Under the pieces are notes generated by a model, which saw nothing but the letters and a program-made list of their open reading frames with translations, searched no databases and had not been told where the DNA came from. This document shows positions 2,360-56,162 of a DNA stretch of 64,000 nt, piece after piece. Every line of letters starts with the position of its first letter. Positions within the stretch are counted from its first letter, which is position 1. Location: assembly GCA_964354105.1 (NCBI GenBank), contig CAYGXM010000004.1, forward strand, positions 5,193 through 69,192. The letters run 5' to 3'. The position numbers and the translations under genes were made by a program. Source of the stretch: Candidatus Woesearchaeota archaeon. Its GTDB lineage: Archaea > Nanobdellota > Nanobdellia > UBA10117.

Positions 2360-3043
2360 TTGCTGGCCATGGGCAAGCTCAAAGAAATAAAAACTCCGCC
2401 GCTTAGTGACCCTCTGCTTGCATATGAAACTGGCGTTCATATTGGTGATGGCACTCTTGGGCATTACAAAACCAAACACGATTACAGAATAGCATATTAT
2501 GGTAATTTAGCAACAGATTACGAGTTCTTTGCTAAAATTTTGCCCGACATAATCTATAAGTTATATGGACTCAAACCTACAATAACTAAACGATTGAATA
2601 GAACCTCTATAGAGCTAAGCATTCGCAGTAAAATGCTTTTTGAATTCAAGAAAGATCTTGGCTTACCAGTAGGAAATAAAAATATAATGCTAAATTTACC
2701 CAAAAAGTTGGTCTCTATTGGTGAAGGTAGCGTCAGAAATATTATTGCGGGTTTGTTTGATACAGATGGTTGTTTTAAAGTAACAAAACAGGCAGGTAAA
2801 CCTTACCCAAAAATAACAATTGCTAACAAAAGCGCTATTTTAACTGAGGTCAAACAACTTCTGCTAGAGCGTTGTATTGGCTGTAATTTATCTATAGATA
2901 GAATAACAAAAGTCAATAAGCTTGATATAAATGGGATTAAAAACACAGATTTATTCTTCCAGATAATACCTTCCAAGAATATTAAGCATTTAAATAGGTA
3001 TAAAAACTGGAAACTTAACGGGCGCTTAGCTCAGTCAGGATAG
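2360..3043 (+). CDS. free-standing LAGLIDADG-type homing-endonuclease-like protein
   Basis: Two LAGLIDADG-like motifs: 'GVHIGDGTLG' and 'IIAGLFDTDGCF'. The track start at 2360 is TTG; the first ATG is at 2369. The last 24 nt and the stop codon lie inside tRNA-Arg. Confidence 0.6.
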   Translation: MLAMGKLKEIKTPPLSDPLLAYETGVHIGDGTLGHYKTKHDYRIAYYGNLATDYEFFAKILPDIIYKLYGLKPTITKRLNRTSIELSIRSKMLFEFKKDLGLPVGNKNIMLNLPKKLVSIGEGSVRNIIAGLFDTDGCFKVTKQAGKPYPKITIANKSAILTEVKQLLLERCIGCNLSIDRITKVNKLDINGIKNTDLFFQIIPSKNIKHLNRYKNWKLNGRLAQSG

Positions 3044-3109
3044 AGCGGTTGGCTTCGGCTCTTCAGAGAAGACACCAACAGGTCGGGGGTTCAAATCCTT
3101 CAGCGCCCG
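3020..3109 (+). tRNA. tRNA-Arg(TCG) with 15-nt canonical (37/38) intron
   Basis: Acceptor GGGCGCT/AGCGCCC plus G73. D-arm GCTC..GAGC. Anticodon stem GTTGG/CCAAC. Loop CTTCGG|intron 3059-3073|A. T-arm GGGGG-TTCAAAT-CCTTC. Confidence 0.85.
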
Positions 3110-3148
3110 CTTGATAAATCTTAATAGCTTATTTGCTCATAAATTAAT

Positions 3149-4189
3149 ATGAACTTCGATGCTAAATACAAATCCTTAATGAAGGACGTTGAAGCCAAAA
3201 TCGTTGAATTTTTCGAGCGCGAACGACAAACCAATGTCAACAAAACCTCAATCGATAGCATTAAAGAGTTCTCCTTGCGGGGCGGCAAAAGATTAAGACC
3301 TATTGCGATCATCGAAGGCTACAAGGCTTGCGGCGGCAAAGATGTTGAAGAAGTAACAAAAGCCTCAATTTCTCTGGAGCTTTTGCATAACTATTTCTTA
3401 ATGCATGATGACGTAATGGATGAGGATCCAATTAGACGAAATAAGCCAACAGTTCATAAAAAATATGAAGAGCTATTTATTCAAAAATATAATGCTCCTA
3501 AGAAACTTGCTAAAAAAGAGGGAGAAAATTTTGCCATAACTGACGGCGATATTACTTCTGCGCTGGCCAGAAAAGCTATTCTTAATTCGCGCTTTCCAGT
3601 AGAAACAAAATGCGCTGCATTAGAGGAATTAGTAGACATTGAATTAAGAACGGCATACGGACAAACCCTTGATGAATCTTCAAAACTTAAGCCTGTTGGT
3701 GTAAATAGCGTATTAGACATACACCTATACAAAACAGCGTGGTATACTTTAGCGGGACCGCTTAGAATTGGCGCTATTTTTGCAAATGCAACTGAAAACC
3801 AAATTGCATCACTAACAGATTACGGGATTAATGCAGGATTAGCATTCCAGATTAAAGATGACATGATGGGTGTCCTGTCGCCAAAAGAATTATGCAAGGC
3901 TAAAAATGATGTTTCTGAAGGCAAAACAACAATGCCTTTGGCATTTCTTTATACTTGTGGGACCTGTAAGCAAATAGATATAGTCCAGAGCTACAGAGGC
4001 AAACCTATGACTGAGGAAGATACTGAAAAAGTCATCTCAATTCTTACTGAATCTGGTGCGTTAGAAAATTGTGAAGAATTAGCCAACAAATACACCACGA
4101 AGGCCAAAAAAGCCTTAGATAAAGCTAATCTGGCAAATAAGGAATTCTTGTATAGTTTAGCTGATTTTGCATCAAAGCGCAGTCGCTAG
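3149..4189 (+). CDS. idsA: geranylgeranyl diphosphate synthase (trans-polyprenyl synthetase)
   Basis: First Asp-rich motif 'LMHDDVMDED' and second 'FQIKDDMMG'. 346 aa. Confidence 0.85.
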   Translation: MNFDAKYKSLMKDVEAKIVEFFERERQTNVNKTSIDSIKEFSLRGGKRLRPIAIIEGYKACGGKDVEEVTKASISLELLHNYFLMHDDVMDEDPIRRNKPTVHKKYEELFIQKYNAPKKLAKKEGENFAITDGDITSALARKAILNSRFPVETKCAALEELVDIELRTAYGQTLDESSKLKPVGVNSVLDIHLYKTAWYTLAGPLRIGAIFANATENQIASLTDYGINAGLAFQIKDDMMGVLSPKELCKAKNDVSEGKTTMPLAFLYTCGTCKQIDIVQSYRGKPMTEEDTEKVISILTESGALENCEELANKYTTKAKKALDKANLANKEFLYSLADFASKRSR

Positions 4190-4276
4190 TTGCTAACTGA
4201 AAACAGCGATTTTCAGTGGCACAATTGAAAGCTCTGCTTTCAATATGTTTTTAAATCAAAATTTCAGCTTTATTTT

Positions 4277-4472
4277 GCTCCCGTCGTCTAGCCCGGTTAT
4301 CAGCAGGCAAGAGCCTGGCTCTGCTTGCGCAGACCGAGAGGATCGCGGATTCTCACGCGCTGAAACTCGGCGAGTTTCGCTGGGTTCCGCTGGAAACATC
4401 CGCTGGCACGAGTTCAAACAGAGCGAAACTAGTTTCGCTAGTTTCTCTGCTGAGGAAATCTCGTCGGGAGCA
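4277..4472 (+). tRNA. tRNA-Glu(CTC) interrupted three times (D-loop, 37/38, T-loop)
   Basis: Acceptor GCTCCCG/CGGGAGC plus A73. D-stem GTCT(4286-89)/GGAT(4340-43), giving the U13-G22 pair typical of tRNA-Glu. Anticodon stem GCGGA(4345-49)/TCCGC(4399-4403). Loop TTCTCA|...|A. T-stem ACGAG(4408-12)/CTCGT(4460-64), with TTCAAAT split. Removing about 39, 42 and 40 nt leaves 75 nt. Exact junctions are uncertain. Confidence 0.7.
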
Positions 4473-4504
4473 TTTATACTAACATTTTTAGCAGAAAATA
4501 AAAA

Positions 4505-5110
4505 CTATTGAGCTGGAGAATTTCTAATTAATTCCTTGGCTATATCTTTCTTAAGCAAAACTATTTGGTCTTCATACTTTTGCCCGGTAGGCTTCAAACC
4601 AAACTTTTCAAACAGGCGGCTCTCATAATTACTCCTGCCCATCGCCTGCGTACTTTCTAGTAACGGCGGAATAAAATCCCAAGTCGTATTATCCCATATT
4701 TGCTTCACCTTATCAGCATACATAATATCTAAAAATTTCTGTTTTTCAGGATCTGTAATAGATTGTGCATTCTTTGTGCATCGGGCATAGTCGTTAGCTA
4801 GTTCTACACATTTCTCTATAGTTTCCTGCGGCAAATTAATTGTGCCATATCCGCAAATCTCGCCTTTCTTGTAAATCTTAATCTTCCCTTCCAAATTTAA
4901 AAGAACAAAGGCCAGTTTGTCAAAATATTGTGTGTAGTATTGGGTTTTAAGCGGTTCTGCATAAGGTAATCTTGGAATCAGGCTTGCAAATCCTTCTTTT
5001 GCAATAATATCGTAATCATTCTGTCTAACAAAAATCTGCCCTACGTCTTTAAATTCGCTTAAAACGGAATCCAAAGTAGATACCTTAGCTGTCACAGCCT
5101 TCGCTTTCAT
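4505..5110 (-). CDS. hypothetical protein
   Basis: 201-aa ORF with an ATG start and no recognisable motif. Confidence 0.45.
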   Translation of the reverse strand: MKAKAVTAKVSTLDSVLSEFKDVGQIFVRQNDYDIIAKEGFASLIPRLPYAEPLKTQYYTQYFDKLAFVLLNLEGKIKIYKKGEICGYGTINLPQETIEKCVELANDYARCTKNAQSITDPEKQKFLDIMYADKVKQIWDNTTWDFIPPLLESTQAMGRSNYESRLFEKFGLKPTGQKYEDQIVLLKKDIAKELIRNSPAQ

Positions 5111-5200
5111 AATGGTAAAATTCTTGTTTGCTTTATAAGAATTTGTTCAGAAAAGCATACGGCATTTCTGGGCATCAGCTGAATTCTTTCAGCTTTATGT

Positions 5201-7378
5201 TCAGAACACTACACAATTGTAGCCTGCTGCCTGCCAAACTTCCTTGTACAAGTCTAAATCGATTTGGCCCAAGGCAGCATCGAATCTGCCTATAGTTCCT
5301 TCTCCAGCATTTTCAGGATTGGTCTTGATGAACTTTTCCAGATAGTAGGTTTTGTTAGGCTCGTTTTCGCCTAATCTGTGCCACTTTTTATCCTTGCAGT
5401 AAACAGCGTAGGCGGTCTCTCCTAATTTCAAGCCGAGCTGGCGGATTATCTGCTGCCTCAGCGTTTCTTCAGATTGTATTGATAGGTGCTCTTTATGCTT
5501 TGCAACTTTATACGCCAAATCCCTGTCAGAAACATTCCCGTTAGCAAGCTTAAGCAGTTTTTCTTTGTAGATAGCTCGAGCTTTTTCTGCCCCATAATCA
5601 AAAGCATCTAAAATTAAGCTTCGACTGGTTTCCCGCTCGAAGTCAGAGCGCAAACCATATCTGCCTTTAATGTCCACACCTTCAGAGAATAGCACGTCAT
5701 CAAGACGCCAGGCTATTTTGTTTATGCCGATAGAAAGCGCGCTGTCCGCAATCCCATAAAAAATACCAAATTCTTTGTCCAAATTGAATTGTTCCAGCGA
5801 AAGGTTATTCCTTTTAAGATAAAGGAATCTTGGCCCTATATTAATAACAGACGTATAATTGTTCATTAGGAAATCAGAAAGCTGCTTAAGTTTCGAATAA
5901 ATATTGCTACGCTCTGCTTCTGGAGTAAGTCCGTAGCGCCACTTGAAGTATTTGTCATTTTGCTGTAAATTATAGAGCTGTTCTGTGCATAAAGCATCCA
6001 AAAATTCAGCTCTTATTGTTCTTGTTTTGGGATCGCCTGTTTGAAGCATTTGCTCCAAGTTATTAATGCCTGCCAAGCCTTTAGGGGCCATTATAACTGG
6101 ATAAAATACCATTACATTTTTAATCAGACCGAACCGTGGCTCGAGTTTTAAATTGTCGCTTAGCAGCGTCATTTTTTCATCGGAGAAGCTGAAGTCTTGC
6201 CATTCTTCCCTTGTCTCCTCTTTGTGTTTGATTTGTTTTTTGAACCTCAGCGCCGGCGGACTTCTGTATGTTTTTAATACACCCCAGTACTCTACTGACC
6301 TTCTCTGCTGGGCCAAAGTCCGTTTAGAGACTGCGACCATATTGCCTAAAGATTTGCCAAAATAAATCGCGAATGGGGCGACTGCTTCGGCTTCCTTTTC
6401 CCCATTTCTCATTGCAATTTCAGAATCTACTCCGCAATAATTTCCAACAATTCTGTTGTTCTCAGGACTAGGATGGTTAATCGACCACTCTAACTCTTTC
6501 TCATGAAGAACTTTCTTCAGCTCCTCCTTCCAGAATCTTGACAAATCGTCTAAAGTATCAGATGCATTCGGCGTCAAAAGTTGGGAAAACTTGCAATTGT
6601 CTACAAAATCTATTTCTGGATGCCATACTCTCCTTACAAAACCAGAGCCGCGAACATGAGGCTCTATGCCGTCTAAACCTGTAAGTAATTTTTCAGAATT
6701 CTTTGTCTTTGTTGCCCTCAATTCAGAAACATCAAAGGGCGCATTATGTATGAAAACTGTGTTGTAAGGCTCAAGGGCTTTTGAAATTGATGTTGTTACT
6801 TCTTGTTCGCTTCCAACTTTATACACTTGAGTGCCTTCTAGATCTTCAGGTGCATTTTCTTCCAATACAAAAAGTTCCTTTTTAGAAGGTGAGGCTAATG
6901 AGCACATGGCTATTTCACCATAAATATCGCTGCCTTTTGCTTTCTTTTCGATGTCAATTGCGCAATACCTGCCTAGAATCTCCTGCGGCCTTGCCAGGCC
7001 GACTATAATTGGCTGGCTGTTATCAAACTCCAAAAGTGAATATACTGGAAAACGCAGAGCAACCATCTCCGGCTTGCTCGTGTTCAGCGATTCTTTGAAA
7101 AATTTGTGCCAGTGAACGCTAAGCCCTTTTTCAATTTCAGACCCACCCTTAACATGGAGAGTATATTTGTATTCAGACTTCTCGATTTTGCTTTCCAGAC
7201 CCAAACTCTGCAGAAGTTCTTGCTTCAGCTGGGTTATGGCTTCAAAATTGTCCCTTGCTGAAGCGAAAATATATTTTGCAGCTACAGAATGCATTTGTTT
7301 TTCGCCATTTTTCGTTGTGTAAAAATTTACAATATCCCTATGGCTGTCAACTCTAACGCCTCTAAGTATTTCAGACAT
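5201..7378 (-). CDS. family B DNA polymerase homolog with substituted polymerase catalytic residues
   Basis: Exo I 'AIDIE' (D142/E144), Exo II 'HNAPFDVSEL', Exo III 'NYCGVDSEIA'. Motif-A-like 'NVMVFYPVIM' (N where DxxSLYPSI has D). Motif-C-like 'FYGIADSAL' (YGDTDS with the first D replaced by I). Motif order and spacing fit an approximately 750-aa archaeal PolB. Confidence 0.65.
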   Translation of the reverse strand: MSEILRGVRVDSHRDIVNFYTTKNGEKQMHSVAAKYIFASARDNFEAITQLKQELLQSLGLESKIEKSEYKYTLHVKGGSEIEKGLSVHWHKFFKESLNTSKPEMVALRFPVYSLLEFDNSQPIIVGLARPQEILGRYCAIDIEKKAKGSDIYGEIAMCSLASPSKKELFVLEENAPEDLEGTQVYKVGSEQEVTTSISKALEPYNTVFIHNAPFDVSELRATKTKNSEKLLTGLDGIEPHVRGSGFVRRVWHPEIDFVDNCKFSQLLTPNASDTLDDLSRFWKEELKKVLHEKELEWSINHPSPENNRIVGNYCGVDSEIAMRNGEKEAEAVAPFAIYFGKSLGNMVAVSKRTLAQQRRSVEYWGVLKTYRSPPALRFKKQIKHKEETREEWQDFSFSDEKMTLLSDNLKLEPRFGLIKNVMVFYPVIMAPKGLAGINNLEQMLQTGDPKTRTIRAEFLDALCTEQLYNLQQNDKYFKWRYGLTPEAERSNIYSKLKQLSDFLMNNYTSVINIGPRFLYLKRNNLSLEQFNLDKEFGIFYGIADSALSIGINKIAWRLDDVLFSEGVDIKGRYGLRSDFERETSRSLILDAFDYGAEKARAIYKEKLLKLANGNVSDRDLAYKVAKHKEHLSIQSEETLRQQIIRQLGLKLGETAYAVYCKDKKWHRLGENEPNKTYYLEKFIKTNPENAGEGTIGRFDAALGQIDLDLYKEVWQAAGYNCVVF

Positions 7379-7429
7379 GACATAAAGCCAAAAGAAAGGA
7401 ATTTAAGACTTTACACGTTCTAGTGAAAA

Positions 7430-8581
7430 ATGCCGTATGTTCCAGACAAGCTAGTATCACCACTCAGCACGCCACCTACAGCATATATAACAAATACAGA
7501 TGAAAGCTGGCGCCCTGAAGGGAGGGGCAAATATTCTGCAGCTAATCTGCAGGAGATTTGGAACCGCATTAAAGTGGACTTGCATAACGCGCGAAGATTG
7601 GGCAGGGCGCACAGGCACAGCGTACATAATGCCTTCTGCTCAGAGGAAATCAAACGTAATGCTGACTTGCTTAGAACAGAGCACAAGAATGTTTTCATCA
7701 CATCATTGTCAGCTGATTTTACGCCAATAGATGAGCGCCTGAAATTTTATCCTGCGCATCCGACTGGCTGGGACCCTTTCTGTAATCTGGCAAAAGTTAA
7801 CGAAGAGATTGGCGATGCTATCCAGAAATATTCCGTCAAGTTCAAGGAAAAATATCACCAAAAACCAAAGTTAAAACATGTATTCTGGCCGATTTGTCCT
7901 TACCTTTTCGGTTATTGCTTCGAAGAGAGAGGCAATAAGATGGTTGTAAACCACATTTTCCCTGAAACAATAGACCGCACAAATGGCTTGATGACTGAAC
8001 ATGGCTACAGATGCTATGGTTCTTCAGAGAAAGAAGTTGGTTCTAACGAGCCGCAATTAGGGAATTTTGAGTGGTCTGAACTTTTAGTTTCGCCAGAAGC
8101 TGCAAAAAGGTCTAAAATCGGAATAATCCCCGGCAGAGGCTACGACTTGCGTTTTGTCTATAATTCAATTCCTTACATTTTGGATGCTGATGCAAGAGAA
8201 AAACTGGAAGTTTACAAAGCACAACACAAAATTGAACCTGGTGTTGCAAACATATTGGATATAGACTTTGCTAAAAAATTAAATTATGATAAAGTTTATG
8301 ACCAAGTCATAGACTGGTCTACTTTCATTAACAGGAATATTATTGCGAACTTTTTAGAAGACAGGATTTTGCAGCCTTTACAAATCAAAAAATTAGAAAT
8401 TATTGCGGAGAAATCCGGCTATGTAAAAGATATTACAAACTTTTACAGCTCAGGCTATTCACTTGACTGGTGGGATGTCATGGAAAATGCCGTAATGCCG
8501 CGCGATGGCATTGCCAACAAGTCTGCAATTAACAGGATAATGGGGGTGGTTTGGAATGATTGGCGAAGCTGGCTCGTCTGA
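7430..8581 (+). CDS. hypothetical protein
   Basis: 383-aa ORF, divergent from the PolB-like gene with a 51-nt intergenic spacer. No confident motif. Confidence 0.45.
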   Translation: MPYVPDKLVSPLSTPPTAYITNTDESWRPEGRGKYSAANLQEIWNRIKVDLHNARRLGRAHRHSVHNAFCSEEIKRNADLLRTEHKNVFITSLSADFTPIDERLKFYPAHPTGWDPFCNLAKVNEEIGDAIQKYSVKFKEKYHQKPKLKHVFWPICPYLFGYCFEERGNKMVVNHIFPETIDRTNGLMTEHGYRCYGSSEKEVGSNEPQLGNFEWSELLVSPEAAKRSKIGIIPGRGYDLRFVYNSIPYILDADAREKLEVYKAQHKIEPGVANILDIDFAKKLNYDKVYDQVIDWSTFINRNIIANFLEDRILQPLQIKKLEIIAEKSGYVKDITNFYSSGYSLDWWDVMENAVMPRDGIANKSAINRIMGVVWNDWRSWLV

Positions 8582-9698
8582 CAACAGATGCCCCATTAAG
8601 TTCTATTATTGCTTACGCAGAGATCAGTATGGAGATTGCCCGTTTGAGTATCCTTCGCTTCCTCCGGAATGCGAAAAACCTTGCGCCTTGGGTGTTTTTG
8701 AGACCCTCATACCTGCAGAAGACCGACGGTATCTGATGCAAGATACTTACGACAAGGGCTACAAGGCTGTTGCAATAGAATTTCATAATGTCTCGCTGAA
8801 TAAAGCCGACATGTTTATAGAATTGGAAAACGGCCTGACGCAGAGCTTGAAAAAAGAAACTAACAAGGGAAAATTTCTTCCACTTCCCTGCAAAAGCATT
8901 TCTCACAAATCTCAGCACAGGGCCAGCGAGTTCAATAAGATGCATCATTGCCAGAGAATCTTCTCTAAAATAGACCACAAAAAACTAGGCTTTCAAGATG
9001 GCATTTTATCTAGGGTTGGAACTGCGTACCATACAATATGCAACCAGCAACATCGTGATTGGATCCAGGAAAACGATCTTTTGAAGGAATTAGGCATAGG
9101 GCCTGTCAGCAGAAAGACACATTGCGAAATCGGTCTTAGATATCACTACAAAGATTTAGTGGTATCTGCACACGCAGATGAAATCCTGCAGTATTTGCCC
9201 AACACTTCCAAATTTGGCAGTGACATTGGTGCGCCTTGTGTTTTGGACATGAAGCGTAAGGCTTATTCTATCTACGAAGAATATAGCTATTTGATGCAAC
9301 TCACTGCAAATATACTTGGCGTAGAAGAAACGCACAAAACTGATTCCGAATATTTTTACTTAATCACAGCTAAAAGGCCGCGAAGAGAAGTCATAGGAAG
9401 ATACAGGCTGCCAGAATATCATATAACTAAAATAGCAAAGAATGGCTCGATTATTAAACAATTCCATTCCGAACTCATCGTAACAAATGCCGAGCAATCA
9501 GAGCTGCTAAACGACAAACTAAAATGGGAAAAGAACAAAATGCTGCTCACAGATGTTGGAGACTGTACAAGCTGTTTTGATAAAGATGTTTGCAATTACA
9601 CTACAAAAACTATGTGTGAGAAGAGAATAAATGCGCGGGAAACCCTTGAGGATGTATTAAAGGCTGTCCTGCCAAACAAGGAGCTTCCAGGAACTTAG
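8556..9698 (+). CDS. candidate Cas4/RecB-like PD-(D/E)xK nuclease with Fe-S cysteine signature
   Basis: C-terminal 'CTSCFDKDVC' (C-x2-C-x5-C, 9564-9593) plus N-terminal cysteines, as in Cas4/AddB-type 4Fe-4S nucleases. Candidate 'HADEIL ... VLDMKRK ... YLMQL' nuclease motifs. 26-nt overlap with the upstream ORF. Confidence 0.35.
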   Translation: MIGEAGSSDNRCPIKFYYCLRRDQYGDCPFEYPSLPPECEKPCALGVFETLIPAEDRRYLMQDTYDKGYKAVAIEFHNVSLNKADMFIELENGLTQSLKKETNKGKFLPLPCKSISHKSQHRASEFNKMHHCQRIFSKIDHKKLGFQDGILSRVGTAYHTICNQQHRDWIQENDLLKELGIGPVSRKTHCEIGLRYHYKDLVVSAHADEILQYLPNTSKFGSDIGAPCVLDMKRKAYSIYEEYSYLMQLTANILGVEETHKTDSEYFYLITAKRPRREVIGRYRLPEYHITKIAKNGSIIKQFHSELIVTNAEQSELLNDKLKWEKNKMLLTDVGDCTSCFDKDVCNYTTKTMCEKRINARETLEDVLKAVLPNKELPGT

Positions 9699-9733
9699 AA
9701 AACGCTTTAAAGCAAATTTTTACTCTTTTTCTA

Positions 9734-9748
9734 TGCGGGCAGCGCAAA
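9734..9748 (+). repeat. 15-nt leader repeat TGCGGGCAGCGCAAA (copy 1 of 2; second copy 9958-9972; imperfect inverted copy 10138-10148)
   Basis: The identical 15-mer occurs 79 nt upstream of tRNA-Leu(TAA) and 52 nt upstream of tRNA-Leu(CAG). Each copy is followed by a short hairpin (GCAAAAGC-TTA-GCTTTTGC, or GCAAAG..CTTTGC) and by 'GCTGGTCCGC' (9799-9808 and 9985-9994). Confidence 0.7.
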
Positions 9749-9812
9749 AGCTTAGCTTTTGCTGGTTTGCTGATGCAAGCAGCGCATAAGCAAGTTATGC
9801 TGGTCCGCTGAC

Positions 9813-9947
9813 GCGGGGATACCCAAGCGGTCAAACAACGGCTGATGCCGAAGATTGCGAATAGCAGCTTCAGACGTTGGTTCAGAGGGGATGGACTTAA
9901 GATCCATTGGCTTAGTGCCTTCAGAGGTTCGAATCCTCTTCCCCGCA
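9813..9947 (+). tRNA. tRNA-Leu(TAA) with approximately 51-nt insertion in the D-loop
   Basis: Acceptor GCGGGGA/TCCCCGC plus A73. D-stem CCC..GGG. Anticodon arm ATGGA-CTTAAGA-TCCAT. Long variable arm TGGCTTAGTGCCTTC. T-arm AGAGG-TTCGAAT-CCTCT. Relative to the 84-nt paralog at 10010, an extra approximately 9836-9886 lies between the D-loop and the 3' D-stem. Confidence 0.8.
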
Positions 9948-10009
9948 TCTACTCATTTGCGGGCAGCGCAAAGACTGGCGCTTTGCTGGTCCGCGCTCGC
10001 TTCGCTCAC

Positions 10010-10093
10010 GCGGGAGTAGCGAAGTGGTCAAACGTGCTAGACTCAGAATCTAGTGGCTTAGTGCCTTCAGAGGTTCGAATCCTCTCTCCCGCA
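10010..10093 (+). tRNA. tRNA-Leu(CAG), uninterrupted
   Basis: Acceptor GCGGGAG/CTCCCGC plus A73. Anticodon arm CTAGA-CTCAGAA-TCTAG. The variable arm and T-arm are identical to tRNA-Leu(TAA). Confidence 0.9.
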
Positions 10094-14629: not shown

Positions 14630-14715
14630 GGGCCCTTGGTCTAGCGGTATGACGTCACCCTTACACCATTAAGGAAGAAAGGTGGAGGTCGCCAGTTCGA
14701 ATCTGGCAGGGCCCA
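14630..14715 (+). tRNA. tRNA-Val(TAC) with 14-nt canonical intron
   Basis: Acceptor GGGCCCT/AGGGCCC plus A73. Anticodon stem TCACC/GGTGG. Loop CTTACA|CCATTAAGGAAGAA|A. T-arm GCCAG-TTCGAAT-CTGGC. Confidence 0.85.
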
Positions 14716-14729
14716 CTAAATTCTTAGAA

Positions 14730-55302: not shown

Positions 55303-55500
55303 TTATTCAACATCAGCATTCGGCAGCTTGCCTTCGAATCTTTTCTGTTCCTGCAGGTAATGTCTTCTGCAGAGATAACTCCACCCTCTATCTTCATACT
55401 TTTTCCCTTTTAATAAGCAAGGATAAACTTCTCTGTAAGCTTTATTCTTGCATTTTCTGTCAGAGTCACATTTAGGCATTTCGGTTAGGGCTTCTTCCAC
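55303..55500 (-). CDS. small Cys-containing ORF (65 aa), uncertain
   Basis: Overlaps the endA stop by 16 nt. 'CDSDRKC...C...CRRH'. No recognisable family. Confidence 0.25.
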   Translation of the reverse strand: MEEALTEMPKCDSDRKCKNKAYREVYPCLLKGKKYEDRGWSYLCRRHYLQEQKRFEGKLPNADVE

Positions 55501-56162
55501 CTTATTTCATAATAAGTTACTTCGCCTTCAGCGTCTACTATTCCAACCAGAAGCCTTTTCCTTGTGCTATGCGCTACCCTGTTCATGGCTGCAAACTGCC
55601 TCCATGTCAAGGAATCGCCTTCGGCTGTCGCGAAAATCACCCATTTGGCGTGATCCTGGCCGGGCTTAATGCCCCTTGGATAAATCCTGTAATCTGCTCC
55701 AAACTTCAATGCAGTTTTAGTGATGTATCCGCGAGTCCTGATATCCTTATAAACCTGATAACGAGTCCAGAAGTTCTTTTCTGCCTTCTCTGCCTTCTTG
55801 CAGAACTGCTCAAAGTTCAGCTGTTTCTTGTTGTCAAAAACAATAAGCTTTCCCCTTTCTATCAGATAAAGAGCTTCATCCAGGGCCAGCTCAAGCCTCT
55901 TTTCCTTTATTCCATGAAGTTCTCCAAAAGAGCTCCTGTCATAGAACTGCTGGGCCAGCTGGAAATCCTCAGTAATAGCAACCCGGTTTCCAATAAGATG
56001 CCCTCTTATTGGCTCTTTAAGCTTGATTTCCTCAATAACAGTATTTGCAGATTCGGGCTTGTGCTGTTCTAAATCTATTTTTTCTACTTCTGCATCCTCT
56101 TCAGATTCTGCTATCTCTTTAAATGTTTCAGGCTTTTCTTTATGCTTATGCTTTTTTCCCAT
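55485..56162 (-). CDS. endA: tRNA-splicing endonuclease (EndA)
   Basis: Catalytic C-terminal domain 'ALKFGADYRIYPRG...DHAKWVIFA...AHSTRKRLLVGIVD' (Y/H/K triad context). N-terminal approximately 50-aa Lys/Glu-rich extension. Confidence 0.8.
   Translation of the reverse strand: MGKKHKHKEKPETFKEIAESEEDAEVEKIDLEQHKPESANTVIEEIKLKEPIRGHLIGNRVAITEDFQLAQQFYDRSSFGELHGIKEKRLELALDEALYLIERGKLIVFDNKKQLNFEQFCKKAEKAEKNFWTRYQVYKDIRTRGYITKTALKFGADYRIYPRGIKPGQDHAKWVIFATAEGDSLTWRQFAAMNRVAHSTRKRLLVGIVDAEGEVTYYEIRWKKP

Follow-up and report, generated by a model that had tools for sequence, protein, structure and literature searches.

Nucleotides 4277-4472 (+) of the window, by which we mean the whole 64,000-nt stretch of DNA that was analysed, very probably constitute a functional, single-copy tRNA-Glu(CTC) gene whose three introns would be spliced from one precursor. 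The gene is 196 nt long and is split by the introns into four exons; a polyprenyl synthetase gene (3149-4189, +) lies upstream and a 201-aa ORF (4505-5110, -) downstream, the interval between these two measuring 315 nt. The window represents contig C4 of a Woesearchaeal assembly of 723 kb in 14 contigs, which is 87% complete and has a GC content of 40%. The original prediction, that this tRNA gene is split in the D-loop, at the canonical position 37/38 and in the T-loop, was borne out by a perfect spliced tRNA, by orthologues that have no inserts at these sites and by the bulge-helix-bulge (BHB) geometry of the junctions.

To describe the product, we joined exon 1 (4277-4299, +; positions 1-20b, with the acceptor 5' strand, the D-stem 5' strand and most of the D-loop), exon 2 (4339-4355, +; positions 21-37, with A21, the D-stem 3' strand, the anticodon stem 5' strand, CTC and A37), exon 3 (4398-4418, +; positions 38-59, with the anticodon stem 3' strand, a 4-nt variable loop, the T-stem 5' strand and TTCAAA of the T-loop) and exon 4 (4459-4472, +; positions 60-73, with T60, the T-stem 3' strand, the acceptor 3' strand and A73). 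Removal of 39, 42 and 40 nt leaves 75 nt, as had been proposed from the unspliced sequence, and ARAGORN folds this 75-mer into a flawless tRNA-Glu(CTC) with the anticodon loop UUCUCAA and the T-loop UUCAAAU that the proposal contained. The acceptor strands GCTCCCG (4277-4283) and CGGGAGC (4465-4471), followed by A73, are present as well, and so are the two hairpins on which the prediction had drawn. In the ARAGORN fold all stem positions are paired (7-bp acceptor; D-stem GUCU/GGAU; anticodon stem GCGGA/UCCGC; T-stem ACGAG/CUCGU), the D-loop reads AGCCCGGUUAA and the variable loop has 4 nt. The conserved tRNA nucleotides T8, A14, G18G19, A21, T33, the T-loop TTCAAAT and A73 are found in the spliced sequence, and exon 1 is the same as the relatives' exon sequence GCTCCCGTCGTCTAGCCCGGTTA. 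Removing the inserts therefore restores a canonical cloverleaf, as is characteristic of archaeal BHB tRNA introns. The 3' end of the gene does not encode CCA.

The gene was not called by ARAGORN or by the Rfam tRNA model, both of which find the same four other tRNAs in the window, and a permissive Rfam scan of 4200-4550 returned no family match, neither tRNA nor box C/D RNA. In the ARAGORN check that the original prediction had proposed, the unspliced gene is not called even when introns are allowed, and the spliced 75-mer is identified as tRNA-Glu(CTC). An 88-aa ORF that overlaps the tRNA gene (4245-4511) was regarded as spurious. In the whole assembly, ARAGORN with introns allowed reports 30 tRNAs; 20 contain an intron, several are clearly mis-parsed multi-intron genes, and none is assigned to Asp, Glu, Ile or Tyr. 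At 14630-14716 (+) of the window, default ARAGORN reports a tRNA with no anticodon assigned, which becomes tRNA-Ser(TGA) with a 14-nt intron when introns are allowed; its Rfam score is 56 bits. A 227-aa ORF at 2360-3043 (+) of the window, with a LAGLIDADG_3 match (PF14528, E = 2e-6), overlaps the first 24 nt of an intron-containing tRNA-Arg(TCG) gene (3020-3110, +). The assembly (87% complete) contains no archaeal SSU rRNA match.

To compare the intron content of orthologous genes, we gathered the tRNA-Glu genes of 16 other genomes of the same family and of one metagenome contig (L059 = Ga0187892_10000001). Their exons are nearly invariant, and the inserts differ in presence, length and sequence. 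The Glu(CTC) gene of G005 is intron-free, with 75 nt; those of G010 and G006 have one intron each, at 15/16, and that of G004 has one at 37/38. Two introns are found in G003 (37/38 and 59/60), G008 (20b/21 and 59/60), G014 (15/16 and 59/60) and L059 (20b/21 and 37/38), and the gene in the window carries three, at 20b/21, 37/38 and 59/60. The Glu(TTC) genes show the same range of intron numbers, with three introns in two of them (G014 and G016). For each of the three introns there are orthologues that have no insert at the exact site, as is expected of BHB introns: the site of intron 1 is uninterrupted (GGTTAAGGAT) in G003, G004 and G005, that of intron 2 in G005, G008 and G010, and that of intron 3 (TTCAAAT) in G004, G005, G010 and L059.

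The spliced product is identical to the spliced Glu(CTC) of G003 at 73 of 75 positions. Both differences belong to one compensatory T-stem pair, A49:T65 in the window and G49:C65 in G003; this compensatory pair is also seen in G004 and speaks for ongoing selection to maintain the tRNA fold. In the same-genus genome G001 we found no Glu(CTC) gene, and the match on its C16 is a tRNA-Lys with an intron of the family to which intron 1 belongs. We also observed that a tRNA-Leu(CAG) gene follows tRNA-Glu(CTC) by 9-50 nt in two relatives (L059, 2800-3130, -; and L049, located on C6 of G006). In the window these two genes are 5.5 kb apart (4472-10093), and between them lie the 201-aa ORF, a 725-aa gene without a Pfam match and an intron-bearing tRNA-Leu(UAA) gene (9813-9948); judging from this gene order, the block looks like an insertion beside the tRNA gene.

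According to the published BHB rule, a 4-bp helix lies between two 3-nt bulges, with positions 34 and 35 within the helix in the case of a 37/38 intron (PMC4090602), and it follows that each cut falls two bases 3' of each helix strand. Intron 1 (4300-4338, +; 39 nt) lies in the D-loop between 20b and 21; its central helix pairs CGGT (4294-4297) with ACCG (4333-4336), four of four pairs being Watson-Crick, with the bulges TA-T and AG-A (here and below the hyphen in a bulge marks the cut). Intron 2 (4356-4397, +; 42 nt) is at the canonical 37/38 site and pairs TTCT (4350-4353) with GGAA (4392-4395), again four of four, including one G-U pair, with the bulges CA-C and AC-A; it has an inner helix GCG/CGC, one additional unpaired U facing the 5' bulge and the hairpin GAAACTC-GGC-GAGTTTC at 4363-4379. 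Intron 3 (4419-4458, +; 40 nt) lies in the T-loop between 59 and 60, and its central helix consists of three pairs, TTC (4413-4415) with GGA (4454-4456), and an A4416/A4453 mismatch. Its 3' bulge, AA-T, is canonical; the 5' site is relaxed, the cut being at the edge of an internal loop without a clean 3-nt bulge. The intron has an inner helix CAGAG/CTCTG and a hairpin CGAAAC/GTTTCG, which is AGCGAAAC-TA-GTTTCGCT at 4422-4439. The folding of the junctions into BHB motifs, which the original prediction had named as a check, was therefore obtained at all three introns, with four of four pairs at introns 1 and 2 and three of four plus the A/A mismatch at intron 3.

The same central helices recur at these sites of the Glu genes despite unrelated intron bodies. 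CGGT/[AG]CCG with the cut 2 nt later was found in all six introns at 20b/21 of the Glu genes of the family, and TTCA/AG[AG]A, always with the A/A mismatch, in five of the nine introns placed at the T-loop of Glu genes, the remaining four, including intron 3 of the window, having been assigned another register by the spliced-alignment script. This script is off by 1-3 nt at repeated sequence, and the divergent genes of G004 and G001 were parsed by eye. The 196-nt segment is more stable than its shuffles (z = -3.7): its MFE is -87.0 kcal/mol and the shuffles average -69.6, and a structure constrained to form all three BHBs reaches -80.9. The unconstrained MFE structure contains the helix of intron 1, but at introns 2 and 3 the pairing is slipped out of the canonical register, so that family comparison and a constrained fold were needed. 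A naive BHB scan of the 196 nt returned dozens of helices with four of four pairs and is thus non-specific; the weight rests on the coincidence of the BHBs with the junctions defined by the orthologues.

Upstream of the gene we detected an archaeal promoter-like TATA/BRE element, tttttaaatcaaa (4248-4260, +), whose centre lies about 25 nt before the tRNA begins. The motif ctttttaaatcaaattttt is found at an equal distance upstream of tRNA-Gln and tRNA-Arg(CCT) in the same genome and of the L059 orthologue, and from this recurrence the element is presumed to act as a promoter. No second Glu(CTC) gene was found in the assembly (87% complete). GAG represents 28.6% of the Glu codons. A tRNA-Glu(UUC) could in principle read GAG, and Glu(CTC) is therefore not strictly indispensable. 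The tRNA-Glu(TTC) gene of the same genome (C1:193-306, +) was also not called by ARAGORN or Rfam. Of its two introns, the one at 20b/21 measures 27 nt and forms a textbook, perfect hBHBh' motif at the same site as intron 1, and the one at 37/38 measures 12 nt.

The genome encodes both a splicing endonuclease and a ligase. EndA, the tRNA-splicing endonuclease (55485-56162, -), is an alpha-type protein of 225 aa whose N-terminal and catalytic domains (PF02778 and PF01974) are each matched end to end at model length, preceded by a Lys/Glu-rich N-terminal tail of 50 aa; its relatives are labelled Candidatus Woesearchaeota or Nanoarchaeia, which places the genome among the DPANN archaea. Self-search of the 87%-complete assembly at E<=10 revealed no paralogue, and with one PF01974 match and one full PF02778 match in the assembly neither a beta subunit nor a three-unit fusion was found. 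The alignment with the strict alpha4 enzyme of M. jannaschii (1A79) contains a gap of only one residue, and by alignment and Pfam model lengths the protein has neither a Lys-bearing CSL or ASL loop in its N-terminal domain nor an L3 (Nanoarchaeum/ARMAN-type) loop in its C-terminal domain. The broad-specificity forms of EndA are (alpha-beta)2, epsilon2 and alpha4 with a CSL, ASL or L3 loop. The CSL, ASL and Nanoarchaeum-type loops have been linked to the cutting of relaxed motifs (PMC5829648, PMC3239211). The alpha subunit of N. equitans has a 6-residue Lys-rich insertion that is absent from the EndA of the window; this insertion is the C-terminal-domain loop L3 (PMC3239211) and has been tied to relaxed-motif cleavage in DPANN (PMC5829648). 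The EndA proteins of six relatives are built alike, their sole extra being the variable Lys/Glu-rich N-terminal tail. The original prediction that a broad-specificity endonuclease would be needed is at odds with these data, which reveal one plain alpha-type EndA with neither a beta subunit nor inserted loops. Introns 1 and 2 are near-strict BHBs for which no special enzyme is needed; intron 3 may need one. The ligase RtcB is encoded at C6:4341-5585. At C6:4341-5677 (-), a separate short ORF upstream of the main 415-aa ORF matches residues 1-26 of the RtcB profile, and one TAA separates the two ORFs; a frameshift, a small intervening sequence or an error of assembly may account for this.

Analysis of the intron sequences indicates that the three introns are members of three sequence families. 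The family of intron 1 has the core TCAGCA.GC..AGC.TGGCTCTGCTT and is also present in the D-loops of Glu(TTC) of G003, of Lys(TTT) of G001 and of four further tRNAs of G010 and G013. The L059 orthologue keeps the ends of intron 1 (T...GACCGAG) around a different interior, which suggests that the core is an insertable module. The family of intron 2 (CGCGCTGAAA..GTTTCGCTGG) occurs at 37/38 in Glu(CTC) of G004 and L059, as orthologous introns, and in Gln of G006. It also occupies a D-loop of G008, and its 59/60 members belong to Ile of G010, a tRNA of G011 and the tRNA-Gly(GCC) of the window's genome. Every one of these introns has a 3' tail that fits the loop in which it sits. The family of intron 3 (CA.AGCGAAAC..GTTTCGCTAGTTTC) is found at 59/60 in Glu(TTC), Ala (three genomes), Arg(CCT) and Lys(CTT). 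All its relatives have the geometry of three pairs plus A/A, and compensatory changes were detected in the inner helix (CAGAG/CTCTG, CAAGA/TCTTG) and in the hairpin; these helices were parsed manually, the MAFFT alignment not being structure-true at the 3' end.

Introns 2 and 3 have GTTTCGCT.G.TTC in common, which explains the likeness of the two hairpins noticed in the original prediction. That likeness is real, the two introns having descended from related intron families. At the same sites of Glu(CTC), other orthologues have unrelated introns or none. Homologous introns are thus present in non-orthologous tRNAs and at other positions, the pattern by which transposed families of the type described by Fujishima 2010 are recognised. 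Since the families occupy other tRNAs and other loops in related genomes, the introns were most likely gained by the spread of hairpin modules between tRNA genes. In the 41 genomes searched, none of the three families was found outside one Woesearchaeal family. When the three introns were compared with their own genome by BLAST, no further long copies emerged, and a motif search of this genome detected one member of the intron 2 family, in tRNA-Gly(GCC). The tRNA-Gly(GCC) gene (C12:2024-2148, -) is interrupted twice, by 12 nt at 37/38 and, in the T-loop, by a 42-nt member of the intron 2 family; it was missed by ARAGORN and Rfam and was verified by splicing followed by ARAGORN. Its neighbour at C12:1506-1614 (+) is a tRNA with a D-loop intron and a match to Rfam that is only sub-threshold. 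On another contig, a 352-aa ORF (C6:430-1485, -), which by its N-terminal sequence only is likely to encode ribosomal protein L3, includes at C6:1050-1115 an in-frame insert-like segment rich in hairpins, about 54 nt long (CCCAAGCGAAACTTCTTGTTTCGCTGGGCCCCGCTGAGCTTCGCTCAGCTTGGG), that resembles the core of the intron 2 family, and the frame is open through it.

Three other explanations were considered. That the segment resembles a tRNA by chance, or is a chimera of tRNA fragments produced by the assembly, is effectively refuted by the orthologue series. The failure of standard tools to call the gene and the many chance matches in the naive BHB scan would fit such an origin, whereas four ordered exons identical to an orthologue at 73 of 75 positions, the same architecture in independent assemblies and in a metagenome contig, and a fold far better than that of shuffles all speak against it. 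It is very unlikely, though less so, that the gene is real and has other junctions or another number of introns, for example with 4301-4339 and 4416-4455 removed, or with a T-loop cut at 58/59. In favour of such boundaries, intron 3 has AAA at either end, so that four junctions would yield an identical mature sequence, and the 58/59 register also scores three of four pairs. Of the three insert positions in the original prediction, 4356-4397 stands; the first, 4301-4339, proved to be 1 nt off. Its removal gives a sequence that folds too, but it places T (U in the transcript) at position 21 and leaves no central helix, whereas removal of 4300-4338 gives A21, which the tRNA-Glu of every relative also has, and four of four CGGT/ACCG pairs; D-loops of relatives that carry no intron there read GGTTAAGGAT, which fixes intron 1 at 4300-4338. 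For the third insert the prediction had offered two options, of which 4419-4458 was retained and 4416-4455 dropped: relatives of the same and of other families have a G before T60, which permits a cut at 59/60 only, and the conserved AG[AG]A tail pairs solely in the 59/60 register.

The third explanation, a disabled gene, is improbable too, and it is the least improbable of the three. It holds that mobile hairpin inserts landed in the DNA and that at least one of them, most plausibly that in the T-loop with its imperfect BHB, is unremovable, so that the locus would be a young pseudogene and GAG would be read by tRNA-Glu(UUC). The relaxed 5' site of intron 3, an EndA without the loops associated with relaxed-motif cleavage and the origin of the inserts from families that look mobile are all compatible with it. 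On the other hand, the exons are intact and the sole differences to an orthologue are compensatory, the promoter is intact and the assembly revealed no second Glu(CTC) gene. In addition, the T-loop family persists with the same geometry in Ala, Arg(CCT), Lys(CTT) and Glu(TTC) of relatives, which would be unlikely if its members could not be spliced.

For a functional, three-intron tRNA-Glu(CTC) gene, which remains by far the most probable reading, we propose the following route. From the TATA-like box about 25 nt upstream, a single 196-nt precursor would be transcribed, in which the 3' tail of each insert would pair with the four exon bases before its 5' splice site (CGGU/ACCG in the D-loop, UUCU/GGAA in the anticodon loop and UUC(A)/(A)GGA in the T-loop). 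EndA, for which 55485-56162 is the only gene found, would presumably cut the six splice sites, two bases 3' of each helix strand; RtcB would ligate the four exons into the 75-nt tRNA, and CCA would be added later. As a broader proposal, which we put forward tentatively and at rather less than even confidence, the three introns may be copies of insertable hairpin modules, each with a conserved core and a host-matched tail, that move between D-, anticodon and T-loops within a Woesearchaeal family and are removed, relaxed T-loop sites included, by a plain alpha4-type EndA without loops.

The layout is a rare one, but multi-intron tRNA genes are known from the Thermoproteales, where a gene may contain up to three introns (Sugahara et al. 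2007, 2008, as cited in PMC4090602). As in those genes, we found up to three BHB-type introns per gene that standard finders miss. The combination of 37/38 with non-canonical sites is also alike, 20/21 and 59/60 being on the published list of positions (PMC4090602). In contrast to the Thermoproteales, the host belongs to the Woesearchaeota of DPANN, its genome has 0.7 Mb and 40% GC, and it has a single alpha-type EndA instead of an (alpha-beta)2 enzyme with a Crenarchaea-specific loop. Families of transposed tRNA introns have been described in the Thermoproteales (Fujishima et al. 2010, as summarised in PMC4090602). Our families resemble them in that homologous introns in different tRNAs and positions show the pattern of intron transposition, and differ from them in their sequences and in joining a conserved core to a short 3' tail that fits the respective host loop. 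Kaneta et al. 2018 reported that tRNA genes are disrupted to an increased degree, by multiple introns among other things, in those DPANN lineages whose EndA is of the alpha4 type, and predicted undetected disrupted tRNA genes in Woesearchaeota (PMC5829648). They tied the trait to the Lys-rich L3 insertion of the Nanoarchaeum/ARMAN-2 type (PMC5829648), which the EndA of the window does not have. The loop-less EndA and the modular intron families are the mildly novel aspects of our results, none of which is new in kind.

ARAGORN and Rfam are blind to this gene, so automatic annotation would list the genome as being without tRNA-Glu(CTC), and 'missing' DPANN tRNAs of this sort would be hidden rather than absent. 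The orthologue series, which runs from none to three introns at fixed sites, provides a clean natural experiment on intron gain and loss, and the intron families common to several tRNAs carry the 'intron transposition' pattern of the Thermoproteales over to Woesearchaeota. A loop-less alpha-type EndA amid many non-canonical introns also puts to the test the rule that inserted loops mean broad specificity. If the proposal of mobile hairpin modules removed by a plain enzyme is true, loop insertions would not be required to process non-canonical or relaxed BHB introns, and DPANN genomes would have an active mechanism of intron gain.
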